A stretch of DNA of 64,000 nt from contig OX597818.1 in the NCBI GenBank assembly GCA_951406725.2, positions 42,222,001 through 42,286,000 of the forward strand, read 5' to 3'. This stretch comes from Octopus vulgaris. Its lineage: Eukaryota. The translations under genes were made by a program, and so were the position numbers. Of the stretch, positions 28,560 through 64,000 are shown one piece after another. Position 1 is the first letter of the stretch. Every line of letters begins with the position of its first letter. Below the pieces are notes generated by a model. It was not told the origin of the DNA, made no database searches, and saw only the letters and a program-made list of their open reading frames with translations.

Positions 28560-28951
28560 ACTAGCAGTATCGCCCAGCGTTGCTCGGGTTTGTTTCGACC
28601 TTTTAGAATTGGAATTTTTGAAAAGTAAAAATTTTGCATTATGTAGCTTGTTATTCTCTTTCAGTGAACATTTTTCTGGTTGAAATACATAGATAAATGG
28701 CGAAACAGCAGTCAAAAAATCGTAAAAAATAGGGATTTTCATAGAAAAGAAGCACCTTTTTTATGTAAATAATTTTTGGTCTTAACATGGTCCAATTTGA
28801 ATTTTTTCTTTTACAGAATAAAGAACAAGCCTTCTTCTATCATACTCTTAATTTTAGTCAATTTGTGCTGCAGGGTCTTGGAGGAGATAGTGTTAGCTGA
28901 AGGCTACCAAACCTGCCATACACAGACAACTTCAGCTTTATATATAGAGAT
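28560..28951 (+). mobile_element. Non-autonomous Helitron/HINE-like element
   Basis: Same 5' 33 bp and similar 3' end as 2523-3037, with a different interior. Confidence 0.65.
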
Positions 28952-29204
28952 TTTTATTGTCTCAGTAGTTTTATTTATATCCTGTACTTTCCCTGTATAA
29001 TCAAATACAGTTCTAAGTGCTTTGTTTAAGATCATCATCATCATCGTCGTCATCATTTAACGTCTATAGTTCATGCTGGCACGGGTTGGACACTTTGACC
29101 AGATCTGGCAAGCTGGGGAGCCACATCAGACTCCAGTCTGATTTGGCATGGTTTCTATGGCCGGATGCCCTTCCTAATGCCAACCACTTTACAGATTGTG
29201 CTGG

Positions 29205-29405
29205 GTGCTTTTATGTGGTATCACACAGATGCTTTAATATGGTACCGTACAGGCGTTATTACATGGCACTGCACAAGTGTTTTCATGTGGAACTACATGG
29301 GTGTTTTTATATGGCACCACATGGGCACCTTAATGTGTCACCATACAGGCAGTTTAACATGGCACTGAACAGGCACTTTATGTGACGCCATCATGAGTGC
29401 TTTAC
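29205..29405. repeat. Degenerate 24-bp minisatellite (8-9 units) in RTE 3' UTR copy
   Basis: Units such as GTGCTTTTATGTGGTATCACACAG and ATGCTTTAATATGGTACCGTACAG recur at 24-bp period. Confidence 0.75.
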
Positions 29406-29673
29406 ACCACCAGAGGGACTTCTGCTGCAGAGTATGCTTTTTCTTAAGTACAAGACACTAAGTATCTCAGTCCTTTGACATCTCACCTAAAAGGTTCAGT
29501 GTTCTGAGGTCGTTCTTCAGCACTTCATCCCATGTCTTCCTGGGTCTTCCACTGTCGTGTGCTCCATCTGCTTTGAGAGACCGGCACTTCTTTATGGAGC
29601 TGTCAGCATCCATCCACATCATATAACCAAACTAGTGTAGTCTTATCTCTTGCATACAGCAGATATATATGTA

Positions 29674-29900
29674 TCTATTTCTTTACTACCCACAAGGGGC
29701 TAAACACAGAGGGGACAAACAAGGACAGACAAACGGATTAAGTCGATTACATCGACCCCAGTGCATAACTAGTACTTATTTAATCGACCCTGAAAGGATG
29801 AAAGGCAAAGTTGACCTTGGCGGAATTTGAACTCAGAACGTAACGGCAGACGAAATACGGCTCCGCATTTCACCCGGCATGCTAACGTTTCTGCCAGCTC
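29674..29900 (-). mobile_element. SINE family B monomer
   Basis: Single head plus one unit. Confidence 0.8.
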
Positions 29901-32180: not shown

Positions 32181-32221
<41 letters not shown>

Positions 32222-32356
32222 CCTGCTTGCTTAGCCAGCGGGGTGACCTCATTTGAAGGCTAAAACAATGCGAAGTGCATTGTGACCAGCAATGTGTAGC
32301 AACATCTGATAGCCTTGTCGGTCACGGTGATCATGGTGATATATATATATATATAA

Positions 32357-32565
32357 CAGGAAGCTTTATGAAAATAGACAAAAGACGAAGGCAGGTGGAA
32401 AACAAACAAACAATTGTATTAGTATGGCGCTCAGGAAATATAAATAAAACAAGTCTTTAACGTTTCGAGCCTACGCTCTTCAACAGAAAGATACACAGAG
32501 AGAAAAAAACACAGAAAGAAGGAGAGAAAAAAATGCGTGCAGTAACTAACGAACCAACATGGCGA
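32357..32565 (-). mobile_element. Penelope-like solo terminal repeat with near-intact minimal hammerhead (32454-32491)
   Basis: Minus strand reads TCTTT-CTGTTGA-AGAGCGTAGGCTC-GAAA-CGTT-AAAGA, flanked by TA tracts. Confidence 0.6.
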
Positions 32566-33186
32566 TATATATATATCACTGTGACTGACCAGGCTATCAG
32601 ATGTTGCTACACATCGCTGGTCACAATGCAATTCGCATTGTTTTAGCCTTCAAATGACGCCACCCCGCTGGCTAAGTGAGCAGGCCAACAGAAGAAAAAG
32701 TGAGAGAAAGTTGTGATGAAAGAGTACAGCAGGGATCGGCACCACCCCCTGCCGGAGCTTCGTGGAGCTTTAGGTGTTTTCGCTCAATAAACACTCACAA
32801 CACCCGGTCTGGGAATCGAAACCGCAATCCTACGCATATTTCTTTTCAGTCTTGTAAAGTAGTTAATTTCTTTGCATTCTGATTTGAAATGTCCCAATAG
32901 TTGTCTTGATTTTCTATCAGATCAGAGCCAATAAAACAAATACCAGTAAAGTACTGGAGTTGAATAAGTTGATTACATCTCTCCAACATAGAATGGGTGA
33001 ATTTGTTCCAACACTAGATCTTTTTATTTGAATAGCAAAATTGGTTGAGCAACACATGAAATACCCTGTGAACACTTAGTTATGTCCTTTACATCCTGTG
33101 TTCAAATTTTGCATGAAGTCTTTCTAGAATTGTATATATAATACCAAAAGATACACCCACACACACACTCACATATGTATGTGTGT

Positions 33187-33223
<37 letters not shown>

Positions 33224-33246
33224 TAAGCATCTACTTCATTTTTTAG

Positions 33247-33422
33247 GGGTGCTGAAGTAGCTACAGGAAATTCAAGATATGGTTTGGCAGAATCAGAAAA
33301 CTTTCTAATGGATAATACAGACTGTAAAGGAGACGAAAGAGCTTTGCAATATTGTTCATATGATACTGAACATGACTGTAAAAAGGATGAAGCTGCTGGA
33401 GTTATATGTAAACCGAACACTG
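33247..33422 (+). CDS. SRCR domain exon 2
   Basis: TTTTTAG acceptor; RGAEVATGNSRYGLAESENFLMDNTDCKGDERALQYCSYDTEHDCKKDEAAGVICKPNT. Donor G|GTAAGT, phase 2-1. Confidence 0.95.
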
Positions 33423-37122: not shown

Positions 37123-37293
37123 GCTGCAAACCTGGTTGGATTTCTGGTCCAAGTGGTTGCTATCATTTGTTTAGCGGCAATATTCAAAGACTCAATGCCA
37201 AAGAAATGTGTGACACTGAAGACAGTCATTTAGTGATTATTGACAGTTTGGAAGAAGATGCATTTCTTTCAGTTTTACTTCAGACCAATAATG
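37123..37293 (+). CDS. C-type lectin domain exon 1
   Basis: GACAG acceptor; GCKPGWISGPSGCYHLFSGNIQRLNAKEMCDTEDSHLVIIDSLEEDAFLSVLLQTNN. Donor G|GTAAGA, phase 1-1. Confidence 0.95.
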
Positions 37294-38170
37294 GTAAGAG
37301 CATAATTTTATAAATTTCTTTAATAATTGCTTTAAATGTCATCCTTGGTCATAAACTTTTGGAGTAAATTTTTCTTAAGCAATTTTTAACAGTTATGAAA
37401 TGTATAAACATGACTTTTACTGGAGTAATTCTTATACATCTGCTACATATGTGAAATGTGTCCAATTAATTTTTTTTTAACGTTATGTACTTTATTAAAA
37501 AGGTTTCCTTTTAAAAAATCTTGAGTCTAATCACCTACTCACACCGGATTTTCCTTCCAATGTCTCCTCATTTTGAATTTTAATTAGTAACAATTCAAAT
37601 TGAATATTAATTCTATCAGGTGAACATTATCTTCAAATCTAGGACATAAAAATAAAATATAACTATCTACAGAGTACAACTCTCATATTTAATGTCATAA
37701 AAGACACAGGGTATATTAGACGTACCCTAATTTCAGCAGTACATACAGGAAAAAATGTTTTTAGTGCATTGAGGTTTAAAGGAGGCCCAACTTTGCATGT
37801 AGGACCATTTATTTACTTATTGAAAAAATGTCCCTTATATGCCATCAAATATGGTCATTAAAAAGGCATGAACTCCTTGCCAGAGATTTTCTTCTCATGT
37901 AAGAAGTTGTTATTCATCACCTGTACAGTGATGTATAAAAATTATAACTGATATAGTGTAATCTTTCAACCAAATACTTCATGATTATTATCCTGTCATT
38001 AACACTTCACTAACTCAAAACATTTCAGTTTTGGTCTGTAGAACAACTGTGCGAAAGGAGAGGTGACAAATGAATGACTCCTTTAATCACTGCATGGTCA
38101 CCTTACAATAAAAGCCAAAATATGGATAAATGAATATGAGTACCAGCAGGAATAAGGAAGGTGACACAGC

Positions 38171-39152
38171 TGTTAGAAGGTTTAAGCGAAAGGTTTACTT
38201 CAGGTGTTAGCAGAGTGTGTGTCCATGAGTGCGACATAAGAACAATAATAGACAGACTGTCAAGCATACATAAAGTGTATGTGTGTTAGCAGAGTGCGTC
38301 TGTGAGTGTGCCATAAATACACATATAATAAGAACAATAATAATAGACAGGCCGTCATGCATACAATAATGTGTATGTGCGTACAAACAAGAGTGTATGC
38401 ATGTGAGATAAAATACAGAGCATAGAAAGTGTTTACAATAGGACGCTAGATGAATGTTCAAACAAGATGAAGATAACAGAGCATAGAAAGGAGTCTATAA
38501 CAGGACGTTAGAAGTTCAGACACAATGAAGTGTGAGATAAATACCAGTTCGTAGTAAGATACGCAATAGTAGAAGTTCTGTAGCAAAGAAGTTGAGGTTA
38601 CAAGGCAGAGCTGGTTGAACACATATCGTGTAAGCGGTTGTGGCTGCTATGCTGTTCCTGGTTACTTGGTACAGAAAGTACTCGCAGGTTGAGCTTACTG
38701 TTAACCATGGTGAAGTTAAACCTAGGCGAAGTCACTGTTGGCATCATTAAGATGAAGGCAACAGAGATGGAGGTCCTGAAATACTGCTAGTGTTGTCTGT
38801 CGCTGGAACTGGCTGTCTGTCGCCGGGTGCTCTCTGGTTAGAGGTTAGTACTTAGAAGGACTAGAACCAAAGACACTCGATTCGATGAATTGCTGTGTTT
38901 TATATCAAATTATAGGCTCAAATGAAGCATTTAGAAGACTGCGTCACGGGACCTTATCAGAAAGTTGCGATTGGTTGGGTTGCACAGTGGCATGTAATAC
39001 AGCAAGAAACAAACTGCACTGATACCAACCAATCAGAGTAGTGGACACAACAGGGCCCAAGCAGCTAAAGGTTAGCTGTTATCTGCTACATCCATATTTA
39101 TGTTATATATGTCAGAGAGAGAGAGGATGAATTTCACTAAGGGTACGTTACA
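38171..39152 (-). mobile_element. Possible solo-LTR-like element
   Basis: Minus strand starts TGTAACG, has CCAAT boxes, TATAAAA and internal tandem duplications, and ends CA. No TSD could be confirmed. Confidence 0.3.
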
Positions 39153-40088
39153 GGTCTTTTAAATCCCCTTGCCACAATTAACTAACTTTCATAAAAATAG
39201 ATCACTACTGTTGGAAGAAGTGTGAACACTGAATAAACAACTTGCCTTTCATTAGTCTATAGTGTTGAATACAATTGTTTATGAGGTCCCAGATTTGCTT
39301 CCATTGGCAAGTATCTTCCTTTCTACACTAGTGAATCAGATTCATCCGAGCATTATGAGTTGGGCAGATGGCAACTGTGTAGAAGTCTGTTGGGTGGATA
39401 TACCTGTAATGTAAAGGGTGATGCTGATTCTGTCCTAGGATTATGTTAAAGAAACAAAAGTCTGTGGAACATTCAGCCACCTACAATATAATACAAGAGG
39501 TAGGTAGTTCAGACGATTAATCAATTAGTAAACTCATTGTTGAAACTGACACAAGATTCATCATCATTATATATAGATAGAGAGAGAGGGGGAGGGAGAG
39601 AGAGATAGAGAGGGAGATAGAGCTAAAATGCAAATTAACAAATAAACACATTTGGGTTTGATACATGTAGCTTAGTGGTAGATGCAGGCATGGCTTCCCA
39701 ACCACACGGTTCTGGGTTCAGTCCTGCTGCATAGCACCTTGAGCAAGTGTGTTCTATTGTAGCTTTGGGCTGACCAAAGTGTTGTGAGTGAATTTTGAGA
39801 CAAAAACTGAAACAAGCCTGTTGCAGATGTGTGTGTGTGTGTGTGTATGTCTTTATGTGTCTCTCAAGGGGAGAGAGTATGGTATTTTGGGTCTGACAAT
39901 TGTTCTGGGGGGCGTGGAATTACATGATATCTGTAATGTTGATGGATGGAGTGTGTAAAAAGTAAAGGATATGCAGCCAGTAGTGGCTACATATAAACAT
40001 TGCTGTAAAACCAACCTCTGTCTTCAGAGTGGAGAGATTGGCACACACACACAGGCACGCACACACATACACACACATACACAAACAT

Positions 40089-40152
<64 letters not shown>

Positions 40153-40700
40153 GGTGGCTGCCCCCTCGTTATCGAGTATGGCCATTGCACGAAGCATAAT
40201 CAACATTGTTATCATGCAATGCCTGTGCAAGAAGATTTTTTTTTAAGTGAGGAAAGGCTGTGCACTGAGTCAATCCCACTCACTAAGCAACAGCAGCCAT
40301 AATCCAAAAAGAAGAACAAGTCAACATCATCAGTAACCACTGAGCCACTGGATTTATGCCGGAGTTATCCCAGTTACCTGAGTTTCCTTCTAGAAGGATG
40401 CCCTAACAAAGGCTAGGAGTCCTTCACTCCCAATGGTTTAACCACGCGATCGGGTATTCAGTCCAATTATTTCTATGTCCCCGTGCATGATACAGCCTTA
40501 AGACATTTATTGGATGGCTGTTGACTCCCAAGAGTTCCTCCGCCCTTTGACAGGTTTTGTTTTTCATCCCGCAGGGTGTCCAATAAACACCCTCCTCACC
40601 AAGCAAGCTTGGTGGGGTTGCCGGTTTAGTTGCCAACGACTCAACCATGCAACAGGTTGTACTGGGTTACATGTTACCAGTAGCACTCGAAAGTGACCTG

Positions 40701-40752
<52 letters not shown>

Positions 40753-40759
40753 ACTATAC

Positions 40760-40823
<64 letters not shown>

Positions 40824-40826
40824 ACT

Positions 40827-40880
<54 letters not shown>

Positions 40881-40966
40881 TGTACTAATGAGCAAGGTTT
40901 GTATATACCTTAAGTATTGTTGTGTTCATGTCCCACTGATTATTTTCTTTTACCTATTTTTTGTAG

Positions 40967-41062
40967 ATAATCATGTCTGGTTGACAGATGGTTTCAAGAA
41001 TGGAAGGAATTGGGAATGGAACTATCAAAGAGAAACTATATCTACTTTCTATTGGTTTCCTG
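40967..41062 (+). CDS. C-type lectin domain exon 2
   Basis: TTTTGTAG acceptor; DNHVWLTDGFKNGRNWEWNYQRETISTFYWFP. Donor G|GTAAAT, phase 1-1. Confidence 0.92.
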
Positions 41063-42426
41063 GTAAATATAGTAATTTTAAAGCATAAAAGCATCTCAGA
41101 ATTTAAGCCTTTTAACTTTTCAAACTGGAATAGACTAGAATAAACGTTTCTAAATTTAGTAATAATGAAGATGAAACTACGACCAACTGCTTTGATAATG
41201 ATTTTTGAAATAATCACGTTTTCAATTATTTTCATAAATTACCAGCCCTGAGTCATTTATCTTAGTTTTTTCCAATTCTGCAACTGGATAAGAAATGTAC
41301 AGGATGCTTAATGTAGTACTAATTTCTGAGAGCACAGAAGAATGATGCAACTCAGATGAGATATGAAATCACATCTCATCAATCACCATTATCCATTTTA
41401 TTATTGTCATTAGCTGAAATAAACCTGTATCAAATGGAATGTTTCACTTTTAGTTCTTATGGGCCTGGGGAGCAAGCTGGCAGTTTTGTTAGCATGCTGA
41501 GCAAAATGCTTAAGCAGCATTTCATCCAACCTGAAGTTCTGAGTTCAAATTCTGCCATGGTTGACTTTGCCTTTCATCTTTTGGAGATCAATAAAGTGAA
41601 TACCAGTTGAGCCCTGGGGTCGATGTAATCAACTTAATCCCTCCCCTAAAATTGCTGGCTTTGTGCCAAAATTTAAGCCCATTATAAATCTGAATATTCT
41701 TTCAAACTTAAAGGAAAGGAAGTACTCAATATAACTTTTGTAAAAAGCTTAGCTCTGAATTCTATAATACTATAAAGAGAATGAGATATTAATGTCTTTC
41801 TCTTTCCATTAAGCACTTGTTGACCTGCCTTTATTATTTATTTATGTATCTATTTATTTATGTATATATTTTGTTGTTTATGTATATATTGAGCTGTACA
41901 ATTGACATTGATCTATTATGTGTGTTTTTACTCAAAATGTTTGTTATTGAGTGAGCAAGATGGGAATATTACAGAATGTGATATGGTTTAACCCTTTAGC
42001 ATTCAGATTACTCTGTCAAAGGTAATGCTTATTTGTTCACTTTGTTTTGAATTAGTCATGCATTATCTCATAGCTTCAAGATTTCAATGATATAACAGTT
42101 TATTTTTAGAATAACATTGTAGGGTCAGTGTGAGAAACTGAATCTGATCAGTTTGAACATAAGACAAGGAGAATATTTGGGCCAGATACAGCTGGTTTAA
42201 ATGTTGAAGGGTTAAAATGGTAGTCTTTTATGATATTTATGAATAATGCTTTGATGGACATTTTGATGCTCTCATGAAACTATGCGATAAATGTCTACAT
42301 GTGAAGTGAGAAATGTTTTACAATTATGTCGAGTGTGATATGAAACGGTATGGTGCAGACTGCTCAGTGTGACAAGTCAACATTAAACCTAGAATTGAAC
42401 AAGCCTGTACTACCATTTCTTTACAG

Positions 42427-42609
42427 GATGGATACCTAATAAGAAGTCTGCAGAGCCAAGCAAAAGAGGGAGATGTATTAGTTTATCCAATGTGTTTGAG
42501 TATGATGGAGAACTGCACATAACTAGTTACTTCTTCTGGAAGACATCTAACTGTAGCTCAGTCACAGGTTTTATCTGTGAACAGAAAAAAACACCTGATT
42601 TCACAGAAG
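42427..42609 (+). CDS. C-type lectin domain exon 3
   Basis: TTTACAG acceptor; GWIPNKKSAEPSKRGRCISLSNVFEYDGELHITSYFFWKTSNCSSVTGFICEQKKTPDFTE has the C...W...C.....FICE signature. Donor G|GTAAGT, phase 1-1. Confidence 0.93.
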
Positions 42610-46334: not shown

Positions 46335-46453
46335 AATGTTACAGTGGAAATGGTGTGTCCTACAGAGGGTCTGTATCAGAAACAGGCAAAGGAACACCTT
46401 GCCTTAAATGGACAGAGAATCCTAAATATAACACAATAAACTCTCCCAATGCA
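46335..46453 (+). CDS. Kringle 1, exon A
   Basis: TTTCAG acceptor; ECYSGNGVSYRGSVSETGKGTPCLKWTENPKYNTINSPNA has the CY..NG..YRG....T..G..C..W signature. Donor GCA|GTAAGT, phase 1-0. Confidence 0.95.
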
Positions 46454-48417
46454 GTAAGTTTACTTTGAATTTTAATTGCTTATCTTGACAATGGTTTGAA
46501 TACATAGTTAGATAATTGATACTGACAATAAAAAAAAAACTGATATAAATAACAACCATTTAGATAATCCACCTTGAATAGCCATAAATTAATTATTGAG
46601 AGGAATACGATAAACAAAAGTAATAACTAGTTTATTGATAAACATTCTTATCGTTTTCTATAGCATCAGGTAAAACTGTTAGCAATGACCAAGCACTATT
46701 AGTTAGTGACATTAGTTATCTGAGATTTTTAATTAAACTGAATCAGTAGCAGAATTTTATATATTTTGCTCAATCCAATCAAACAAAAATTACAGGTACT
46801 CATCAAAATGTGATGAGCTTACAGGTGATTCATGCCCTCCAGATTCAGAACAGTAAAACTGTTTCAAATTTTAGCAAAAGCCACAAATTTTTGTGAGGAC
46901 AGGTAAGTCAATTACATCGACTCTAGTGCCCAACTGGTTCTTATCTTATCAACCACCAAGAAGGCAAAGTTGACCTTGGAAGAATTTGAACTCAGAACAC
47001 AAATCTGGAAGAAATATTGCTGAGCATTTTGTCCAGAGTGCTAATGATTCTGGCAGATCACAGCCTTTCAGCTCAGTGCAATTAAAAAGAATACATAAGT
47101 ATTTTAGGTTGCTATGATGAAAGAGAATATCCATTATTTTGATTGGATCCACTTTTCAATGAAGACTCTTCTCTAAATATTAAATATTCCCTTTTCTATC
47201 TAAGCTAAATAATACTTCCTTTTTCTGAATTTAACAAAATTTGTCTATATTAAATTCTGAATTCTTACTTTGTAAGGTCCATAGTGGCTTTTATATTGGT
47301 TTTTTTTTTTTTATAAGTACTTCTGGTTTCTATGCCAAGGTTATGAATTGTTTTCTAGATTCTCATCATCATCATTGTCATTTAACATTCGTTTTCCATG
47401 CTGTCATATGATGGACAGCTTGATAAGAGCTAGCAAGGCCAGGGGCTGCAAAAGGTTCCATTCTCTGTTTTGGATTGGTTTCTACTACTGGATGTCCTTC
47501 CTAACATCAACCATTTTATAGAGTGTACTTTTTACATGGTGTTTTTTACATGGTACCATCACCAATGCTTTTTTATGTAGCACCATAACCAATAGTTTCT
47601 ATGCAGTAAAAATAGTTCTAGAATTTTCTAGTAATGTAAATTTTTAATAGCAAATCTTTCCATATCGTCCATGTCTAAGATAATAATGCATTATCCTCAG
47701 CAGAGAAATACAGATATGATAGAATTCTTTCTTAGCACTACCATTCTGATTTTGATAATCTATTGTAATTCTTACAATAGATTACCAAATAATAAATGAT
47801 GATGATGATAAAAATGATAATGATGATGATGATGATGATGATATATCAACCTGTGTATAAATATATATAACCTCATCATCATCATCATCATCGTTTAGCA
47901 TCCGTTTTCCATGCTAGCATGGGTTGGACGGTTCTACTGGGGGTCTGTGAAGCCAGAAGGCTTCATCAGGCCCAGTCAAATCTGGCAGTGTTTCTACGGC
48001 TGGATGCCCTTCCTAACGCCAACCACTCCGTGAGTGTAGTGGGTGCTTTTTACGTGCCACCCGCACAGGTGCCAGACAGAGCTGGCAAACGGCCACGAAC
48101 GGATGGTGCTTTTTATGTGCCACTGGCACAAGGGCCAGGTGAGGCTGGCAACGGACACGAAACGGGGCGGTGCTGGCAACGGTCGCGAAACGGAAGGTTC
48201 TCTTACATGCCACCGGCACTGGTAACACATCTGCAATTTCCATTGATCGATTTCCATTCTGATCCTCACTTGCCTCAACGGGTCTTCACAACCTGTCATA
48301 TATAATTCTTTGCTTTTTAACATCCATTCTTTTCCATGCTTGCATGGGGCTGAATGGATATGTATAATATAGTAGAAATAATGATTATTATTATTATTAT
48401 CATCATCATCATCATCA

Positions 48418-48459
<42 letters not shown>

Positions 48460-48460
<1 letters not shown>

Positions 48461-49015
48461 GTTTTTCCTTCTTTCTTCAAATTTTCTTCCGTTTCTCGCC
48501 GGGTGTTTTCCATACACCTAGGGCAGAGAAGGGCATTGTATGCATTCCCAGATTACATGCGCAAATTCACAGATAAAATATGTATTTAAAAATTAATAAA
48601 TAAATAAATTCATGGATGGATGTTATTTTCACAGTGATATTGCTCTTCTCAGTACATTAGCCGTTCCAGTTAATACGATTTTTTGCACCTCCTGTAGGGA
48701 TGGTAAACCTGGAATCATTTTCAAATAGGTTTCAGTACCTTTTTTTATCATTCCTAGAGATCCTACAATCACTGGTACTGTAGTCACCTTGAGATGCCAC
48801 ATTTTTTCAATTTCTATTAGCAGGTTTTTATATTTACTAATCTTGTCAAATTCTTTCATCGCTATATTGTGATCACAGGGAATACTCATGTCAATTAATA
48901 AACACATCCTTTTTGTCTGATCTTTTATAATAATATCCGGTTTATTAGCTTTTATAGTCCTGTCGGTCTGTACGGGAAAGTCCCATAGAATCAACACATT
49001 TTCTCCCTCAGTCAC
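48460..49015 (-). mobile_element. R4/Dong-like non-LTR retrotransposon 3' end (REL endonuclease) in (TAA)n
   Basis: ORF 48629-49015 contains LWDF...TDR...NKPDI...LID.SIP...KY..L (PD-D/ExK restriction-like endonuclease). TAA tracts lie on both sides. Confidence 0.85.
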
Positions 49016-49038
49016 AGTTTATTATTATTATTATTATG

Positions 49039-49073
<35 letters not shown>

Positions 49074-49139
49074 CATCATCATCATCCTTATTATTATCGC
49101 CATCATCATCCTCATCATCATTATTATTATCATTTCAAA

Positions 49140-49605
49140 GTAACATTGGGCCATCAAAGTAACACTGGGGTACAAATATACAAAGCCTAGTACACCTATC
49201 ATGACTACCTGCCTGATAAGCGTATACTAGGCACATGCATCATAAACATATGTGCATGACATGGTGATCTTATATCAAGATAAACAGTGCATGACCTTGC
49301 AGATGGGGCCCAGTTAGAATTTTCTTCTGGTCGAGTAACCCATCCCACTCAAAAAGTCCCTGAATAAGGGTTGTTTAAGGATGTTGAACGAAACACCCAT
49401 GTTTCCAGAGGTGAATTATTCAAACCTCAAAGAATCCTTCTCTACACATGGCTATGATGCTCCCCCACTACTTCTGCTCATCACCAGAGATGCACATATC
49501 ATCAACCACTAAGGGACATGCTCAACTGGTTAAGGTCAAACAACTGTCAAGCAAATCTGTGGTATTGAGCAGAATATTTGCTGCAACCCATCTTTTATAC
49601 CAAGA
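49140..49605 (-). mobile_element. TAA-associated non-coding element
   Basis: Reverse complement homology to 14390-14840. Confidence 0.7.
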
Positions 49606-49617
49606 TTATTATTATTA

Positions 49618-49669
<52 letters not shown>

Positions 49670-49758
49670 GCCAAAATGTATCTGACACATATCTCAAGCA
49701 AAATATAAATGAAAATATAAACATTTGTAACTTTAAATTTCATTCCTACTTCCTCTAG

Positions 49759-49942
49759 GGTCTCGGAGACCACAATTTTTGTCGAAACCCTGATGATGAT
49801 GAGCGTCCATGGTGTTGGGTAGCACCAGCTTTCCAAAATCAGTTTGGATACTGTAAAATTGATCAATGTAAAAATGTTACAGAAAGCACAACAGTGGAAT
49901 CAACTGTGACTACATACCCAACAACAGTGGCATCAACTACTC
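49759..49942 (+). CDS. Kringle 1, exon B + Thr/Ser-rich linker
   Basis: CTCTAG acceptor; GLGDHNFCRNPDDDERPWCWVAPAFQNQFGYCKIDQCKNVTESTTVESTVTTYPTTVASTT. Donor C|GTAAGT, phase 0-1. Confidence 0.95.
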
Positions 49943-53638: not shown

Positions 53639-53699
53639 CTACAACTAAACCTAAACCAACATGTTCTCCTGTCCAAATGCTATGTAAAGGATCAAATAC
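53639..53699 (+). CDS. Linker + LDLa domain exon 1
   Basis: TTTTACAG acceptor; PTTKPKPTCSPVQMLCKGSNT. Donor AC|GTAAGA, phase 1-2. Confidence 0.88.
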
Positions 53700-54284
53700 G
53701 TAAGATTTTTTTTACCTTTTTTTATAACAATACTTAAGAAATATTGAAAATTTCCAAAATCAATTTTTTAAATTCTACTTTTTACTCAAAATACTAAGCT
53801 ATGTCATGTTATTTTAATTTTAAAAAGAAATATCTAGAATACAACTTTGGTTAATAAGCATTACCTTTTGAGTCAACAGATAAGCCTCTGCCTAGCCATT
53901 CCTTACAAGAAATAGCAGCCAAATTTCCTTCAATTCATACTATAACATCTTACACAAGGAAGGACATTCTGGAAAACGTGATTATAGACTCACTATACCT
54001 GAAAATAAAATAGTATGGTTATGACTAGAATTACTTTGAACAGAGGTCTGTTTGATCAAGACTCATTAGTGATTAAACAACAACGACATTTTTTTTTTTT
54101 GAATGGCTAATTTATTCATTTTTATCATATTGCTGACAGTGAAATAAAATATTTAACTACCATGAAATAATTTCTGGTCAAAAATAAAATAAGTGTGGTA
54201 TATTTTTTGGCTCCAGGATTGCTCAGTCAAAACAAATGTATGCATTAATGTCAGTACTAAAACTGCATATTTTTATCATAATAG

Positions 54285-54355
54285 GTGTATTTCACTCGTT
54301 TGGAGATGTGATGGAGAAAGGGACTGCATCAGAGGTGATGATGAAGAGAACTGTC
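54285..54355 (+). CDS. LDLa domain exon 2
   Basis: TAG acceptor; CISLVWRCDGERDCIRGDDEENC has the CI....CDG..DC..G.DE..C signature. Donor C|GTAAGT, phase 2-1. Confidence 0.95.
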
Positions 54356-56524
54356 GTAAGTATACTGGTGACAATATATCGTAAATAAAATTGAGATGGT
54401 GTCATTAGATGTTTGGTTTCAAATTTTGGCACAAGGCCAGCAATTTCGAAGGAGAAGATAAGTCGCTTGCATCAACTCAAGTGTTCAACTGGTAATTTTA
54501 TCAACCCTGAAAAAATGAAAGACAAAGTCAACCCCAGCATAATTTGAACTCAGGATGTAAAGCTGGATGAAATGCTGCTAAACATTTTGCCCAGCATGCT
54601 AATGATTCTGCCATCTTGCTGCCTTATGTTTGGTAAACATCATAACAAAATGACAATAGGTGTAAGTAATGGTGGTTTAGGAAGGAACTTATCAAATATT
54701 GTTAGGAGGGACACTAGAAATGACAGAGTGTCAGACAAGACAGAAAGTCGACAATCCACAGATAATAAAGCATTTTTTCCTTCTCCCAAATTTTTAGTTT
54801 TCTGAATATGTTAATCCTCTACCATTCAGATTACCCAGTCAAATGTAATGCTTATTTATTCACATTGTTTTGAATTAATCCTTCATTATGTCATATATTC
54901 AAGATTTCGATGACATGATTATTTATTTTAGGAAGGACATCAAAGTGCAGGTATGAGAGGCTGAATCTAGTCAGTTTGACCATAAAATAGGTAGAATATT
55001 TGGGCCAGATATAGTTGGCTTAAATGCATTGACTGCATTTCATCCTGGTTGATAAAATAAATATCAATCAAATACTGCTGTTGATATAAACAACTGTTAT
55101 CACCCATCAAACATGTGATCTTTTGACGAAGAAAGAAATCATTATTTGAATTACAGAATTAGTAATATGCCAAATAAAATACTGTTTTCCATATTTAGTT
55201 CTAGCTTTTTAGGTGACAAACAGGCAGAATCATTAGAATGCCAGGCAAAATGTTTAGTGGCGAGCTGGCAGAAATGCCTAGCAGTATTTTGTCAGCCGCT
55301 ACGTTCGGAGTTCAAATTCCGCCGAGGTCGACTTTGCCTTTCATCCTTTCGGGGTCAATTAAATAAGTACCAGTTACGCACTGGGGTCGATTAAATAAGT
55401 ACCAGTTACGCACTGGGGTCGATATAATTGACAATCCATTTGTCTGTCCTTGTTTGTCCTCTCTGTGGGTAGTAAAGAAATAGGTATTTCATCCATCTTT
55501 ATATACTGAGTTCAAACTCTGCCAAGGTTAACTTTACCTTTGATCCTTCCAGTGGCAATAAAAATAAGTACCAGTTGAATACTGGGGTTGATGTAATTGA
55601 CTTATTCCATCCCCAAAATTGCTGGCCTTGTGCCAGAAATTTGAAATCAATATTCAGTTTCTTCCCTTTACATTCTAAATTCAGATTAATTCAGATTATC
55701 TTTGCCTTTTATCCTACCAGGGTTGAATAGGTACCAGTCATGTAGTGGAGTTGATTTAATCAATTGTGTTCCTATTTCAAATTTATGATCTTTTACTCAT
55801 CATCATCATCATTATCGTTTAACGTCCGTTTTCAATGCTGGCATGGGTTAGACGGTTTGACTGAGATCTGGAGAGCCAGTGGCTGCACCATGCTCCATTC
55901 TGATTTGGCAATGTTTCTACAGCTGGATGCTCTTCCTAACACCAATCACTCCAAGAGTGTAGTGGGTGCTTTTTACATGACACCAGCACAGGAGCCAGTC
56001 AGGCAGGCTTGGCATCGATCACATTTGGATAGTGCTTTTTACATGCCACCTGCACTGGACCCAGTCAGGTGGCTCTGGCATTGATCATGTTTGCATAGTG
56101 CTTTTTATGTGCCATCAGTACACAAGCCAGTCAGGGGGTACTGGCATTGGCCATGTTCAGATCATGCTTTTTATGTGCCACCAGCAAAGAAGCCAGATAT
56201 GGGGTACTGGCCACAGCTACGATCTTGGTTTTATTTGATGCAACAGGTCTTCCCAAGCATATCATATCGCCTGACGCATCAAGGGTACTCTTAAATGGAG
56301 CAGACATGCAACACTGACATCAGCCAATGCTGCAATCTCACTTTAGTTGCTGGGTCTTCTCAATCACTGCATATTTCCAAAGGTCTCAGTCTCCTGTCAT
56401 TGCCTCTGTGAGGCCCAATGTTCGTAGGTCATGCTTCACCACCTCATCATGCTTCACCACGTGAATCATGACCTTCAAATATTGGGCCTCACATGTTCTT
56501 CATGTGATTCATTAATGCTTTCAG

Positions 56525-56643
56525 ATTGTTACAGTGGAAATGGTGTATCCTACAGAGGGTCTGTATCAGAAACAGACGGAGGAACACCTTGCCTTAAATG
56601 GACAGAGAATCCTAAATATAACACAACAAACTCTCCCAATGCA
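56525..56643 (+). CDS. Kringle 2, exon A
   Basis: CYSGNGVSYRGSVSETDGGTPCLKWTENPKYNTTNSPNA, with the same splice sites as kringle 1 exon A. Confidence 0.92.
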
Positions 56644-59562
56644 GTAAGTTTACTTTGAATTTTAATTGCTTATCTTGACAATGGTTTGAATACATAGTTA
56701 GATAATTGATACTGACAATAAAAAAAAAACTGATATAAATAACAACCATTTAGATAATCCACCTCGAATAGCCATAAATTAATTATTGAGAGGAATACAA
56801 TAAACAAAGGTAATAACTAGTTTATTGATAAACATTCTTATCGTTTTCTATAGCATCAGGTAAAACTGTTAGCAATGACCAAGCACTATTAGTTAGTGAC
56901 ATTAGTTATCTGAGATTTTTAATTAAACTGAATCAGTAGCAGAATTTTATATATTTTGCTCAATCCAATCAAACAAAAATTACAGGTACTCATCAAAATG
57001 TGATGAGCTTACAGGTGATTCATGCCCTCCAGATTCAGAACAGTAAAAGTGTTTAAAAACTTTAGCAAAAGCCACAAATTTTAGTGAGAACAGGTAAGTC
57101 AATTACATCGACGCTAGTGCCCAACTGGTATTTATCTTATCAACCACCAAGAAGGCAAAGTTGACCTTGGAAGAATTTGAACTCAGAATATAAATCTGGA
57201 AGAAATATTGCTGAGCATTTTGTCCAGAGTGCTAATGATTCTGGCAGATCACAGCCTTTCAGCTCAGTGCAATCAAAAAGAATACATAAGTATTTTAGGT
57301 TGCTATGATGAAAGAGAAAATCCATTAGTTTGATTGGATCTACTTTTCAATGAAGACTCTTCTCTAAATATTAAATATTCACTTTTTTCTAGCTAAGCTA
57401 AATAATGCTCCCTTTTTCTGAATTTAACAAAATTTGTCTATATTAAATTCTGAATTCTTACTTTGTAGTTCCATAGGGGCTTTTGTAATTTTTTTTTCTT
57501 TTTATAAGTACTTCTGGTTCCTATGCCAAGGTTATGAATTGTTTTCTAGATTTTCATCATCATCATTGTCATCTAACATTCATTTTCCATGCTGGCATAC
57601 GTTCATAGGAGTTGGCAAGGCCAGGGGCTGCATCAGGTTCCATTCTCTGTTTTGGATTGGTTTCTACTGCTGAATGTCCTTCCTAACATCAACCATTTTA
57701 TAGAGTGTACTTTTTACATGGTGCTTTTTACACGGTACCATCACCAATGCTTTTTTATGTAGCACCATCACCAATAGTTTCTATGCAGCAAAAATAGTTC
57801 TAGAATTTTCTAGTAATGTAAATTTTTAATAGCATATCCTTTCCATATCGTCCATGTCTAAGATAATAATGCATTATCCTCAGCAGAGAAATACAGATAT
57901 GATAGAATTCTTTCTTAGCACTACCATTCTGATTTTGATAATTTAATGTAATTCTTACAGGTTCTATTTATTCATCATCAATTGAAAACCAAATAACAAA
58001 TGATTATGATGGTGATGATGATGATGATGATGATATTGTAATTTAATTATACATATATAAAATATATCATATATAATTCTTTGTTTACTTTTAACATCCA
58101 CTTTTTACCATGCTTGCATTGGGCTGGATGGATATGTATAATATCCAGGCATGAATGTGTGGCAGGAAATTTGCTTCCAACCAATGTTTCCAGGTTCAAT
58201 TCCACAGTGTGGTACTTTTGGTCAAGTGTCTTCTATTATATCCTTGGGCCACCTAAAGACTTGTGAATGGATTTGGCTAACAGAAACTGAAAAAAGCCTA
58301 TCATATATGAGGCAGGGGTGCCACAATCACCTTACCTTGACATCACATGATTAGTGTAATTAGTGTAATTATGAAAGTTTACACCAGCGAGAAAATTCTT
58401 TAAAATTCTAAATTTAACATATTTTTATCAAAATGTGGTTTTTGATTTTCTTTTGTTTCAACTACAGAAACATAATTTTAATTTACTGCGAGGTATCATT
58501 TTTTTAAAACCATGAGATAGTGTTCCCCCTTTGTCATTTTCTCTCTCTTTACACTTAGGACTGTAAAATGAAATGTTATATATTTTAACAATTGACCCCT
58601 TTGCTGAGATTATTGTTCACTTTGTCATATGATTTACAGGAATAAAAAAAAATACAATTTCCTATCTCTGTACATCTGAAATTGTGTGTTTATGTAGGTT
58701 ATTAATACTGATATATGCAAATATGTATATTGACAGAAAAATAATGCAGAGCATTACAAGTGTTCAAATCTACAGTAAGTTCTGCAGTATGAACTTTCAC
58801 AGTACATACTTGGAGTGCTTCTAGTTCACTGTCAGGCAAAGTTGTAAAATCTGATATGCATATATATGGTGAACCAAGGATATTTATGTAGCTAAGTTAT
58901 GTCAGCATATTACCAGATTTCTTCATAAATTCTGACACTATCTTTGAGTCCTTGCTATTATTCTAAATTTATTTATTGAATGAGAGAGTGTTGTTACATA
59001 AATATCAGATATGAAGAGAAATTAAATCTGACATATCAGAAAAACTATACGAATTGAGAATTAAATGTATAAACATGATTTTGTGACCAGCAAAAAAAAA
59101 AATAATAAACCATCCAGTGGGCAGTTTTCTGCCAGTGTGTAAAAATAACTGATCATAGTTCAGTGTCAATTTACATAACCAAGAATAAGATACTTGTTGA
59201 CAACAGTCATTTAAGTAGGGATATTTTTTTTTATTACTAGGAATCTCTCTGAAGTTCAAATAATGGACTGGCAGAATCAGTAGCACATTGTGCAAAGTGT
59301 TTAGTGATGTTTTTTCTGACAATCTAAGTTCTGAGTTTAAATACTGGGAGGTCAACTTTGTCTTTTTTATTTTAACCTTATGGGCTTGATGAAATAAATA
59401 CCATTTAAGCACTGAAATCGCTGGAATTGACTAGTACCCACATCCTTGAAACTAAAATTTCAGGCCTTGTACCTATAAGAGAAAGAATTATTATTATTAT
59501 TATTATTGTTGTCGTTGTTATCGTCGTCGTCGTCATTGTTGTTGTTCTTGTTCTTGTTGTTG

Positions 59563-60290
59563 TTGAGTGAGAGAGCAGGACATGCCATCAAAGTGACACT
59601 GGGGTACCAATATACAAAGCCCAATATACCCATCATCACTACTTGTCTGTAAGGAGACACCAGTCACATGCATCACCACCATGACTTTGCAGGTGGGGTT
59701 CAGAATTTTCATCGGGTCAAGTAGCCCATTCTGCTCAAAATTTCTCTGAATAAGATTTGTTTAAGGATGATGAATGCAATACCCATGTTTCCAGAGGTGA
59801 ATTATTCAAACCCCAAAGAATTACCCTCAACATTTGGCTTTTCTGCTCCCCAACTACTTCTGCTCATGATCAAATATGCACATATCATCAGCCTCTAAGG
59901 GACATGCTCAACTGGTTAAGGTCAAACAACTGACAAGCAAATCTGTGGTAGTGAGCAGAATATGTGCTGTGGCCCATTTTAATACCAAGACAAAACAATG
60001 TACATGATAACACTTCCAATCAGTTAAAATCAAAAGCCATTATTGTTGAGAGAGTAGTGCATGCCATCAAAGTGAAACTGGGTTAAAATATACGAAGCCT
60101 AGTATACCTATCATGACTACCCATCAGATAAGGGTAAACCAGGCAAATGCATCACAACCATATGTGTGCAACATGGTGATCTTATATCAAGATAAACAAT
60201 GCATGATCTTGCATGTACATGATAACACTTCCAAGCAGTTAAGATCAGAACCCATGAGAGCCACTACTGGTACTGCATCAGAGCATTCAT
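59563..60290 (-). mobile_element. Two tandem TAA-associated elements
   Basis: GAGAGAG...CATGCCATCAAAGTGA starts at ~59565 and ~60048, homologous to 14330-14862. Confidence 0.65.
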
Positions 60291-60361
60291 TATTATTATT
60301 GTTATTGTTGTTGTTATTTTTGTTATTGTTGTTGTTGTTGTTATTATTATTTTTATTATTA

Positions 60362-60429
<68 letters not shown>

Positions 60430-60435
<6 letters not shown>

Positions 60436-60884
60436 TAGTTTTATTTTTATAGCGTGCTTTCACTTCACTACCGAGCACAGCTCTGTGTGCCTTAGGTATG
60501 TGCTGTGATTTGTTGTGATGCTCTGATGGTTATTGTATGGAAAGTGTTCTGCGTAGGATGTGTGCAGTGCCTAGTAGTGCAATTTTCTGTATGTTATATG
60601 TGTTTGTAAGTCCTGGTGTTTTTGTTATATATTTGTCTAAATATTTTTTTTATCATGCCTAATGCACCTACTATGATAGGAATTGTTTCTGTTTTTAGAT
60701 TCCGCATTCTGGTTACCTCTATTTCCAGGTCTTTGTATTTTGAAAGTTTCTCCATTTCTTTTAGAGACACGTTGTCATCTGCCGGTATTGATACATCAAT
60801 TAGAAAGCATTTTTTTCTTCATGATCTCTGACAATTATATCTGGTCTGTTGGCCTTAATTTCTCTATCTGTGTGTATCGGCATT
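60430..60884 (-). mobile_element. R4/Dong-like LINE 3' end in (TAA)n
   Basis: PIHTDREIKANRPDII...IQKIALLGTAHILRRTLSIQ* (stop 60530-60532), flanked by TAA tracts. Confidence 0.85.
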
Positions 60885-60885
60885 A

Positions 60886-60938
<53 letters not shown>

Positions 60939-61027
60939 GCCAAAATATATCTGACACATATCTCAAGCAACATATAAATGAAAATATAAACATTTGTAAC
61001 TTTAAATTTCATTCCTACTTCCTCTAG

Positions 61028-61211
61028 GGTATCGGAGACCACAATTTTTGTCGAAACCCTGATGATGATAAGCGTCCATGGTGTTGGGTAGCACCAGCTT
61101 TCCAAAATAAGTTTGGATACTGTAAAATTGATCAATGTAAAAATGTTACAGAAAGCACAACAGTGGAATCAACTGTGACTACATTCCCTACAACAGTGGC
61201 ATCAACTACTC
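61028..61211 (+). CDS. Kringle 2, exon B + Thr/Ser-rich linker
   Basis: GIGDHNFCRNPDDDKRPWCWVAPAFQNKFGYCKIDQCKNVTESTTVESTVTTFPTTVASTT, with intact splice sites, phase 0-1. Confidence 0.92.
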
Positions 61212-61835
61212 GTAAGTATTTTAAAAACAATTTAAACACCAAATGAAGAAAATCAGGCAATTATTAGTGTTTAAATGAAAACTTCAACAGTAACAGATCA
61301 TTATAAGGTGAAATATAAATCAGTTTGTAGTGTAAATATTTCCTGCAAAACTTAATTTGACTGTAAAATTAATGAGCTAAAATAAAGGACAGATTTTACA
61401 TGTGGAACTTGATTTAAAATCAGCTACAGAAGATTATAAATTCTTTGAAATTAAATTTGGATTTAGATGAAGTTTCTTACTGCTAAACTGCTTCAAAAAC
61501 AGATATTATTGTTTTCTGGTTTCTTTCTATCACTTTATGTTGCATTTTGTGCACATAATTTCTTACTTTCTGGACATCAGTCTTACTAAATTAAGACATT
61601 TCTCTATGACTCCTGGTGCCACATAAAAAGCACCCATGCCAGTATCAAATGACAGCAACCATGCTGGTTCTACATATAAAACACCCAGGTCACTCTGTAA
61701 AGTGGTTGGCATTAGACAGGACATCCAACCATAGAAACTATGCTGAAACAGACAAGTGGAGCCTGGTGCAGCTCCCTGGGTGGCCAGCTCCTGTCAAACT
61801 GTGCAACCCATGCTAACACGGAAGACAGATGTTAA

Positions 61836-62020
61836 ATGATGATAATGATGATGATGGTGGTGATGGTGGTGGTGGTGATGGTGGTGGTGGTGGTGGTGTT
61901 GGTGGTGTTGGTGGTGGTGGTTGTGGTGGTGGTGGTGGTGGTGGTGGTGGTGGTGGTGGTGGTGGTGGTGGTGGTGGTGGTGGTGGTGGTGGTGTTGGTG
62001 GTGGTGGTTGTGATGAAGAT
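61836..62020. repeat. (GGT)n microsatellite grown from RTE tail
   Basis: GAT-to-GGT triplet run follows GATGTTAAAT. Confidence 0.9.
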
Positions 62021-62335
62021 TATGTTTTAATACAGAATTATTAACTTGGATTACATTACTCAAATGCAAGGTAATAATGGGAGTCAATATGTGAGCAAAT
62101 ACAACGCAATATATACTCAAGAAATACACGCTGATTAATAAAAAAAGCGAAACATAAAGATCCAAGTACAAAAAATATCATGCCACTTACGAAACAAACC
62201 AGTATGCAAATTAGAAGGCAGTCAAAAGTTGAATTTAAAAGGACACGAGGGGAACACACAAAATAAAGTCGTTAAACTTAGTTCAATACTTAGCCAGAAC
62301 ATGGAAATATTAGAATTAAATTAGAGCAATATAAC

Positions 62336-62636
62336 AATGATGATACTGGATAATGATGATGATTATGATGATGATGACGATGACGATGATGACGATGATG
62401 ACGATGATGATAATTATGATGATGATGATGATGACGACATTGCCGCCGCCGCCGATGATGATGATGTTGATGACAACGACAATGATGATGATGATGGTGA
62501 CGATGATGATGTCAATGACGATGATGATGATGACGATGATGTTGATGATAATGATGATGATGATGATGATGATGACGATGATGATGATGATGATGACGAT
62601 GACGGTGATGATGATGACGACGATGATGATGATGAT
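62336..62636. repeat. Imperfect (GAT/GAC)n microsatellite
   Basis: ~300-bp triplet tract immediately before the duplication junction. Confidence 0.9.
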
Positions 62637-62885
62637 TATTTTAACTTCATCCCACAGATTATTTTAACTTCATCCTGACATCAGCCAATGCTGCAATCTC
62701 ACTTTAGTTGCTGGGTCTTCTCAATCACTGCATATTTCCAAAGGTCTCAGTCTCCTGTCATTGCCTCTGTGAGGCCCAATGTTCGTAGGTCATGCTTCAC
62801 CACCTCATCATGCTTCACCACGTGAATCATGACCTTCAAATATTGGGCCTCACATGTTCTTCATGTGATTCATTAATGCTTTCAG

Positions 62886-63004
62886 ATTGTTACAGTGGAA
62901 ATGGTGTATCCTACAGAGGGTCTGTATCAGAAACAGACGGAGGAACACCTTGCCTTAAATGGACAGAGAATCCTAAATATAACACAACAAACTCTCCCAA
63001 TGCA
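62886..63004 (+). CDS. Kringle 3, exon A
   Basis: Identical to 56525-56643 including splice sites. The gene continues beyond the window. Confidence 0.85.
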
Positions 63005-64000
63005 GTAAGTTTACTTTGAATTTTAATTGCTTATCTTGACAATGGTTTGAATACATAGTTAGATAATTGATACTGACAATAAAAAAAACTGATATAAATA
63101 ACAACCATTTAGATAATCCACCTCGAATAGCCATAAATTAATTATTGAGAGGAATACGATAAACAAAGGTAATAACTAGTTTATTGATAAACATTCTTAT
63201 CGTTTTCTATAGCATCAGGTAAAACTGTTAGCAATGACCAAGCACTATTAGTTAGTGACATTAGTTATCTGAGATTTTTAATTAAACTGAATCAGTAGCA
63301 GAATTTTATATATTTTGCTCAATCCAATCAAACAAAAATTACAGGTACTCATCAAAATGTGATGAGCTTACAGGTGATTCATGCCCTCCAGATTCAGAAC
63401 AGTAAAAGTGTTTAAAAACTTTAGCAAAAGCCACAAATTTTAGTGAGAACAGGTAAGTCAATTACATCGACGCTAGTGCCCAACTGGTATTTATCTTATC
63501 AACCACCAAGAAGGCAAAGTTGACCTTGGAAGAATTTGAACTCAGAATATAAATCTGGAAGAAATATTGCTGAGCATTTTGTCCAGAGTGCTAATGATTC
63601 TGGCAGATCACAGCCTTTCAGCTCAGTGCAATCAAAAAGAATACATAAGTATTTTAGGTTGCTATGATGAAAGAGAAAATCCATTAGTTTGATTGGATCT
63701 ACTTTTCAATGAAGACTCTTCTCTAAATATTAAATATTCACTTTTTTCTAGCTAAGCTAAATAATGCTCCCTTTTTCTGAATTTAACAAAATTTGTCTAT
63801 ATTAAATTCTGAATTCTTACTTTGTAGTTCCATAGGGGCTTTTGTAATTTTTTTTTCTTTTTATAAGTACTTCTGGTTCCTATGCCAAGGTTATGAATTG
63901 TTTTCTAGATTTTCATCATCATCATTGTCATCTAACATTCATTTTCCATGCTGGCATACGTTCATAGGAGTTGGCAAGGCCAGGGGCTGCATCAGGTTCC

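Follow-up and report, generated by a model that had tools for sequence, protein, structure and literature searches.

The honeybee protein SP23 is arranged as CBD-SR-Clect-KR-LDLA-PA-2LDLA-SP (PMC1761132, Table 1), and it shares with Anopheles Sp22D and Drosophila Tequila (GRAAL) the same core order of SRCR, C-type lectin, kringle, LDLa, PAN, LDLa, SRCR, and protease domains. Molluscan members of this type of family are labelled "svh-1-like" or "neurotrypsin-like" in databases. In C. elegans SVH-1 and vertebrate HGF, a ligand role accompanies the loss of catalytic activity (PMC11305532), and the KIV-2 repeat of LPA is known to have more than 30 alleles (PMC7613587). Judged by domain order only, the Octopus vulgaris gene described here belongs to the SRCR-lectin-kringle-LDLa-PAN-protease family of SP23, Sp22D, and Tequila. 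Its protein differs from these three in several respects: it has no chitin-binding domains (none appeared in Pfam scans of P0001–P0003, nor do the Pfam lists for molluscan relatives show any), it carries two or three kringles and between five and eight Thr-linked LDLa repeats, and its catalytic Ser is replaced by Asp, with a degenerate activation site. Chiton, nemertean, and other spiralian relatives also show the order SR-CT-KR-LA-PAN-LA-SR-LA-SR-protease, and the clusters lying nearest in the Atlas are those of nematode and arthropod LDLa-SRCR-trypsin proteins, the arthropod cluster standing at 0.88 as a lead only; no arthropod sequence was matched among 92 proteins, nor among the 114 of a profile search crowded by SRCR arrays. 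The original prediction of a cephalopod recognition protein was right as to the cephalopod gene, but the product is more than a recognition protein, belonging to a mosaic serine-protease family that is already known.

The window, i.e., the whole 64,000-bp stretch of contig OX597818.1 that was analysed, contains the first 14 coding exons of this gene (Table 1), which, when spliced, equal residues 1–585 of the annotated O. vulgaris protein CAI9722759.1 (P0008) with 0 mismatches. This protein has exactly three kringles followed by LDLa repeats, PAN, SRCR, and a trypsin-like domain, and the gene product, likely secreted, is a large mosaic protein whose family is distributed across invertebrates. 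The window has three copies of kringle exon 1 and two of kringle exon 2, the latter with its Thr-rich linker, so that the cassette predicted to occur at least three times is confirmed for its first exon and incomplete in its third copy, whose exon 2 is known from the annotated protein. All of these exons have AG/GT sites and phase 1-0-1, and because of this phase-1 symmetry, any extra kringle cassette stays in frame. The internal intron of cassette A is 3,305 bp long, 13 of the 25 residues of the kringle B linker are Ser or Thr, and the splice from the LDLa exon to kringle B (54355 joined to 56525) is expressed in an RNA contig. No paper on this gene was found in the literature on octopus kringle/LDLa proteases and invertebrate kringle arrays, with most subscription journals outside the coverage. 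The third kringle of this mosaic-protein gene probably derives from one very recent tandem duplication of 6.36 kb. It is an ordinary exon duplication, not a long apolipoprotein(a)-style array, and the predicted extension of the array beyond the window is not borne out, since CAI9722759.1 stops at three kringles and continues into LDLa repeats.

Table 1. Features of the gene and of the duplicated units in the window (positions within the 64,000-bp stretch).
Feature	Position	Strand	Evidence
First coding exon with ATG start; N-terminus hydrophobic, likely a signal peptide	21305..21379	+	equals P0008 residues 1-25
Exon 2	26396..26457	+	P0008 match
SRCR domain, 2 exons (28389-28523, 33247-33422)	28389..33422	+	domain scan and P0008 match
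C-type lectin domain, 3 exons (37123-37293, 40967-41062, 42427-42609)	37123..42609	+	domain scan and P0008 match
Kringle cassette A, exons 46335-46453 and 49759-49942 (kringle second half and Thr/Ser linker)	46335..49942	+	
LDLa domain, 2 exons (53639-53699, 54285-54355), between cassettes A and B	53639..54355	+	tblastn and P0008 match
Duplicated unit B, 6,361 bp	56314..62674	+	
LINE 3' end remnant, presumably RTE-like	56314..56450	-	
Kringle B exon 1, 119 bp	56525..56643	+	P0008 match; RNA contigs of runs X12 and X15 cover it without differences
Kringle B exon 2 and linker, 184 bp	61028..61211	+	P0008 match
(GGT)n microsatellite, about 53 units, 158 bp	61855..62012	.	
(GAT)n microsatellite, about 100 units, 300 bp	62337..62636	.	
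B/C junction, 19-bp sequence twice (62634, 62657)	62634..62675	.	sequence comparison
Duplicated unit C, start only, runs off window	62675..64000	+	
Exon 1 of kringle C, no difference from that of B	62886..63004	+	P0008 match

The cassettes are related at two levels. Cassettes A and B are 94% identical and lie 10,190 bp apart with the two-exon LDLa between them, whereas the 1,328 bp of B and C that can be compared in the window (56314–57641 vs. 62675–64000) show 99.77% identity, with one substitution (56799 A/63158 G) and one 2-bp poly-A indel. The differences that tell the second exon of B from that of A lie more than 22 bases ahead of the splice site. The distance from B exon 1 to C exon 1 is exactly 6,361 bp, so the spacing and the near-identical introns claimed for copies 2 and 3 both hold, as does the claimed absence of an LDLa between them: no remnant was detected in 61212–62885 (best tblastn match E 0.36) by a search that recovers the A/B-spacing LDLa exon with E 1e-12. 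The predicted junction setting is likewise correct for the LINE remnant, as the 5' breakpoint of unit B (56314) lies immediately past the stop codon, on the 3' side, of a C-terminal remnant of a LINE, and for the GGT and GAT tracts before the junction. The RTE name is our assumption from the C-terminal motif; a longer LINE copy in the window (7900–8265) scores 0.95 to Atlas clusters named "endonuclease-reverse transcriptase fragment", the junction LINE being a C-terminal remnant only. Unequal crossing-over between two LINE copies was considered as the cause of the B/C duplication and rejected because the flank on the C side and the repeat on the B side are not homologous. The junction consists of 40 bp of non-microsatellite sequence containing the 19-bp internal repeat, which is absent elsewhere in the window, and has homology to the B flank of only about 1 bp. 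Templated insertions have been described as a hallmark of polymerase-theta joining (PMC7368036).

Copy C could also be an assembly error, a false tandem duplicate of unit B at the GGT/GAT microsatellites of a gene that really has two kringles, which we regard as possible, if somewhat unlikely. The near-identity of B and C, the adjacent 158-bp and 300-bp microsatellites, and the two kringles in all four O. sinensis models and in one O. vulgaris model are in keeping with such an error, but the window has no N gap, and an assembler would be unlikely to invent a 40-bp non-microsatellite junction with an internal repeat. Moreover, B and C differ less than two alleles should: at the published O. vulgaris heterozygosity of 1.22%, about 16 differences are expected in 1,328 bp (Poisson P 1.4e-5 for the observed number). 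The 62637–63100 segment has best content shares of 0.66 and 0.57 in the 24 listed sequencing runs, shares that are blind to the presence of the junction, and among these 24 runs no RNA run is on record as containing the segment. The heterozygosity argument loses some force because assembly polishing can make a false duplicate uniform.

Contigs of four of the 24 sequencing runs were compared with 53550–57990, all contigs being retained. The B/C junction did not appear among the joints listed for these runs, in which dispersed repeats predominated, a further 605 joints and 2,067 loose ends standing outside the listing. C-type letters (56765 C, 56799 G, and 56809 G) are found in a DNA contig of run X2 and B-type letters in run X1; therefore, both variants exist in reads. 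The X2 contigs without 31-mers common to copy A have depths of 111 and 122, while four flank contigs have 49–81, a weak hint of more than one B-type copy. Depending on the flank baseline, the implied number of B-type copies is 1.1–2.5 in X2 and 0.6–3.5 in X1, contig depth not being a copy-number measure; X2 exceeds one copy under every baseline tried, which speaks against an assembly error, whereas X1 gives one copy with the highest flank contig as the baseline, as that error would predict. The X2/X1 depth ratio has no step at the duplicated unit. Repeats and the paralogue may inflate contig depth, and X2 may be the source of the window itself. Taken together, the 19-bp templated-looking repeat, the differences too few for alleles, and the depth in one run are weak signs that favour a real and very recent B/C duplication.

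The one informative RNA contig, from run X12 (depth 7.5), continues without interruption from the LDLa exon to the end of B exon 1, the exon at which a splice from B exon 2 to C exon 1 would be expected to branch in. The missing branch at the start of B exon 1 agrees with an assembly error and also with a duplication that is real DNA but silent, its transcripts using one B-type cassette by skipping and the protein keeping two kringles. This second possibility, to which the two-kringle O. vulgaris model P0002 beside the three-kringle P0008 also lends some weight, is unlikely; C exon 1 has intact splice sites identical to those of B exon 1 and 211 bp of identical upstream intron. It overlaps with the duplication reading on the DNA and differs only on splicing.

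The comparison with related species, proposed in the original prediction, places the two duplications apart in time. O. sinensis has the A/B duplication in common with O. vulgaris but only one B unit, with two kringles in each of its models (P0001, P0004, P0005, and P0006); P0002 likewise has two, the paralogue and Argonauta have one each, and 10 of the 29 relatives have extra kringles. Kringle A is identical in protein sequence to O. sinensis kringle 1. In the kringle tree, orthologous A and B kringles pair across the two Octopus species; hence, there is no sign of A/B homogenisation, and gene conversion between A and B, which was also considered, is unsupported. The octopod kringles group with those of the spiralian family, and the shark plasminogen kringles stand separately (support 81/85, 79 columns). 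The predicted convergent array is thus upheld as a duplicated cassette independent of vertebrate kringles by the tree, but its scale is two near-identical neighbours only. Near-identical arrays can collapse in assemblies, and further unequal exchange can act on two near-identical 6.4-kb units; together with a unit anatomy close to LPA and a degenerate protease domain, this would suit a B-type cassette that shows two units in this assembly but forms a KIV-2-like multi-allelic array of variable, larger numbers among individuals, kept uniform by unequal crossing-over, on a protease-dead protein. We consider this scarcely probable at all: annotation goes no higher than three kringles, the B unit of O. 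sinensis is single, A and B pair by orthology, and the implied B-type copies stay at or below 2.5 (X2) and 3.5 (X1) even at the lowest baseline. No evidence of many copies or many alleles was found in the annotated models or in contig depth, which is not a copy-number measure, from the two DNA runs.

The protease domain lies outside the window, and both its state and the three-kringle limit rest on predicted gene models, those of the two paralogues appearing to be chimeric in part. In the annotated models of both Octopus species, GDDGGP replaces GDSGGP and the activation site is degenerate, while GDSGGP is kept in the paralogue and in 28 of the 29 non-Octopus relatives. With its catalytic Ser changed to Asp, the trypsin-like domain is predicted to be inactive; since the triad is intact in the paralogue and in 28 of 29 relatives, the protein was filed as a protease homologue of the spiralian family. 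In alignment with plasminogen kringle 4, the octopus kringles keep both Asp after CRNP and the Trp of PWC and have Lys-Phe (B and C) or Gln-Phe (A) at the plasminogen Arg-Trp position before the last Tyr-Cys, the positions compared being those of lysine-binding kringles of the plasminogen K1/K4 type. The lysine-binding role of the residues compared is our assumption, except for Trp72.

The duplication history that we favour would have begun with a one-kringle active protease gene that duplicated, one copy losing its catalytic serine before the O. vulgaris/O. sinensis split, and the A/B cassette duplication would fall in the same period. In the O. vulgaris line, a non-homologous break and rejoining beside the long microsatellites would then have produced a further copy of cassette B and may have left the short templated repeat at the junction. 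From its family and domains, the product could act non-catalytically, by binding or as a scaffold, and one more kringle with its likely O-glycosylated spacer would make it longer and raise its valency, probably with minor consequences. Two- and three-kringle forms of the allele may segregate, with no indication of a long or hypervariable array. The gene offers a phase-symmetric exon-cassette duplication caught at two ages and already in public annotation, and it is also a warning that one annotated isoform may hang on a single unverified 6.4-kb duplication. If it is length-polymorphic, this protease-dead, kringle-expanding mollusc duplicate would parallel the apo(a) of primates and hedgehogs at an early stage and could serve to test whether loss of catalysis frees kringle modules to expand. 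That the octopus has independently taken the apo(a) path, with a protease-dead duplicate carrying a copy-number-variable, in-frame kringle and mucin-linker cassette and yielding haemolymph binding proteins of different length in different individuals, is very unlikely. A growing LDLa-linker array would be a further part of that path.

Several other systems resemble this locus in part. The octopus protein shares with SVH-1 and HGF the architecture of kringle, PAN-type, and protease-fold domains; this likeness is one of domains only, and the Ser-to-Phe change was not enough by itself to give the growth-factor form of SVH-1. Three adjacent kringles occur in oyster P0018 and two in oysters, scallops, and Solemya, the Solemya pair being nearly identical. 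Under the database name "apolipoprotein(a)-like", amphioxus P0017 carries 16 kringles and Saccoglossus P0061 seven. On the tree, the bivalve and kringle-only invertebrate arrays are independent events, and the family members with a readable motif keep GDSGGP. The LPA-like unit anatomy that had been predicted is found in the two-exon kringle (exons of 119 and 184 bp in octopus vs. 160 and 182 bp in LPA), the internal intron (4.4 kb vs. about 4 kb), the spacer intron (1.7 kb vs. about 1.2 kb), the Ser/Thr-rich linker, and, for B and C only, the near-identical introns between neighbouring units, which in KIV-2-type arrays are 98–100% identical, and it is accompanied by a protease domain predicted to be inactivated in the duplicate gene of both Octopus species. 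However, LPA derived from plasminogen, whereas the octopus kringles group with the spiralian family; the KIV-2 repeat of LPA has many tandem copies, whereas the longest octopus model has three kringles, two of them near-identical neighbours; and, unlike those of LPA, the octopus kringles sit among SRCR, lectin, LDLa, and PAN domains.

Fourteen exons in the window correspond to residues 1-585 of the O. vulgaris three-kringle model P0008 (CAI9722759.1) with zero mismatches, the one solution of a backtracking splice search, and the spliced product has 18 differences over 546 residues from the O. sinensis model P0004. P0008 is composed of SRCR, C-type lectin, kringle, LDLa, two kringles, eight LDLa, PAN, LDLa, SRCR, LDLa, SRCR, and a trypsin-like domain, and is exactly one 101-residue cassette apart from the O. 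vulgaris two-kringle model P0002. The second kringle exon as a query picked out three protein clusters, each of them from Octopus, from 11 candidates.

In motif scans of the window, the exon for the first half of a kringle turned up three times and the one for the second half, which carries a Thr/Ser-rich tail, twice. Within the window, the original prediction of a cassette occurring at least three times holds for first halves only, as copy C is represented there by its first exon alone. The cassette is in phase 1 at both start and end, so any extra copy keeps the frame. A two-exon LDLa separates cassettes A and B; none was found between B and C in a search with a positive control, as had been predicted. 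Self-comparison of the window revealed a single long near-identical repeat, in agreement with the 6361 bp spacing and near-identity proposed for copies 2 and 3, along with an older upstream copy. The repeats thus compared represent duplication at two ages.

Coordinates of features in and around the kringle cassettes (window positions)
Feature	Position	Paired position	Remarks
Exons matching P0008 residues 1-585	21305 to 63004		14 exons
Near-identical repeat	56314-57641	62675-64000	6,361 bp offset; 99.77% identity; one substitution, one 2-bp poly-A indel
Older upstream copy, first segment	46305-47842	56495-58028	94.0% identity
Older upstream copy, second segment	49614-50161	60882-61430	94.9% identity
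Segment between GGT and GAT microsatellites, just before junction	62021-62336		316 bp; no match elsewhere in window
3' remnants, LINE family of the 56314 breakpoint	7900-8377; 29464-29632; 43466-43907; 45200-45400		at 7900-8300, open C-terminal frame, then 18-bp unit x4.7
Very abundant dispersed repeat	19471-19985; 55351-55423		forms: 184-bp tandem (2.8 copies), internal 32-bp duplication
X12 RNA contig, splice	54355 to 56525		274 bases; depth 7.5
X15 RNA contig, span	56535-56644		this span only

Copy C is probably a real duplication, and its being an artefact is rather unlikely. The junction has a 19-bp sequence present twice and nowhere else in the window, and shares next to no homology with the B flank, which argues against an artefact; insertions of this kind, templated locally, have been described for polymerase-theta joining where a tandem duplication or a deletion is sealed (PMC7368036). 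At 1.22% heterozygosity (PMC10700109), ~16 allelic differences are expected in 1,328 sites, more than the two observed between B and C. The read check covered contigs from four of the 24 listed runs, and both letter types were present, B-type on a contig of DNA run X1 and C-type on one of DNA run X2, again disfavoring an artefact. The X2 contigs without 31-mers common to copy A have depths of 111 and 122, above the flank contigs (49, 67, 80, and 81), and under a two-copy model the value for each of the four unit contigs is 54-61, while X1 has 45 and 30 against a flank of 13-30; contig depth is no copy number according to the tool, and the implied B-type copies range broadly (0.6-3.5 in X1, 1.1-2.5 in X2), which tells against a real copy. 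The long microsatellites adjoining the junction, itself not visible in the run contigs, point the same way, as does the X12 RNA contig, unbroken through B1 where a break would tend to arise if B2 were spliced to C1; however, contigs drop rare forms, and the break expected from copy A is missing too. At position 56627, the X1 and X2 contigs have T, the state of copy A and O. sinensis, and the X12 and X15 contigs have the C of window copies B and C, a discrepancy that may be due to allelic differences or to copy A having been merged in. The repeat is real but small: two kringle cassettes are certain, and a third is likely.

The array had been expected to extend beyond the window, but P0008 goes on into LDLa past its third kringle, so the array ends at three in that annotation. 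Among predicted models, all four from O. sinensis that include a B-type kringle carry two kringles in total, and a single kringle is present in the neighboring paralogue of each species and in the Argonauta protein. The larger repeat of the gene is the LDLa run, eight domains with Thr-rich linkers at P0008 residues 652-1057, outside the window, four of which are 73-89% identical. This run has five to seven LDLa in O. sinensis models, five in the paralogue and Argonauta, and one in most other molluscs; length variation is more plausible here than among the kringles.

Also outside the window, the models of both Octopus species (P0001, P0002, P0004, P0005, and P0008) possess a GDDGGP catalytic motif and a degenerate activation site, the catalytic Ser being replaced by Asp in these predicted models. 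GDSGGP is found in the paralogue and in 28 of 29 relatives, the remaining one being without a match. The product is probably a pseudoprotease of a widespread family. In the O. sinensis model P0006, kringle B is fused to a protease end of the active type, and the model seems to combine the two paralogues. Paralogue isoforms (P0003, P0010-P0014) use two different protease-domain first halves (P0010 vs P0014), which suggests that the exons concerned are alternatives or exclude one another.

The relatives are 29 non-Octopus proteins with a lectin-kringle-protease layout, drawn from 92 matches to residues 40-560 and belonging to molluscs, a nemertean, an annelid, and unnamed transcripts, with the core order SR-CT-KR-LA-PAN-LA-SR-LA-SR-protease. 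Seven have two or three adjacent kringles behind the lectin domain, and a further three have two extra kringles ahead of the protease. In a weakly resolved kringle tree (44 rows, 79 columns), the nine octopod kringles form one group (87/91), kringles B and C of O. vulgaris join the B kringle of O. sinensis (97/84), the duplicates in bivalves form separate pairs, and those of shark plasminogen lie outside. A published table gives honeybee SP23 the core order of these relatives; the protein is described as closest to Anopheles Sp22D and Drosophila Tequila, and its function as unclear (PMC1761132). Tequila is described as abundant in haemolymph, with a null mutant lacking a phenotype (PMC11050137), and beetle Tequila as having CBM, LDL, SRCR, and PAN domains (PMC11172050). 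Kinship with these insect proteins is putative, drawn from domain order and an Atlas lead. Literature searches found no paper on this octopus gene, and the available portions of PMC11305532, PMC6337849, and PMC10855680 do not describe it.

Exon structure, frame symmetry, and LDLa-to-kringle B expression are established. Gene duplication may have been followed by loss of the catalytic serine; the A/B duplication would predate the O. vulgaris/O. sinensis split, and a later single non-homologous tandem duplication of B would have its 5' end inside a LINE remnant and its 3' end beside the GGT/GAT tracts. The product would be secreted and serve as a multivalent binding protein lacking catalytic activity; in sequence comparison, more putative lysine-site residues of the plasminogen type are kept in kringles B and C than in A.

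Long invertebrate kringle runs are already present in databases (16 kringles in an amphioxus protein, seven in one from Saccoglossus), and convergent apo(a) is reportedly known in hedgehog. The LPA unit is 5.6 kb long (PMC6314250). Its kringle is encoded by two exons (160 and 182 bp) with ~4 kb of intron, successive units lie ~1.2 kb apart, and LPA, which comes from plasminogen, has >30 alleles of KIV-2 and a protease domain that is inactivated (PMC7613587). The octopus unit, with exons of 119 and 184 bp, a 4,384 bp intron, and 1,674 bp between units, resembles a single LPA unit, and protease loss is common to both. The octopus gene, with three kringles annotated, differs from LPA in copy number and in plasminogen origin. 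An apo(a)-like copy-number-polymorphic reading is improbable.
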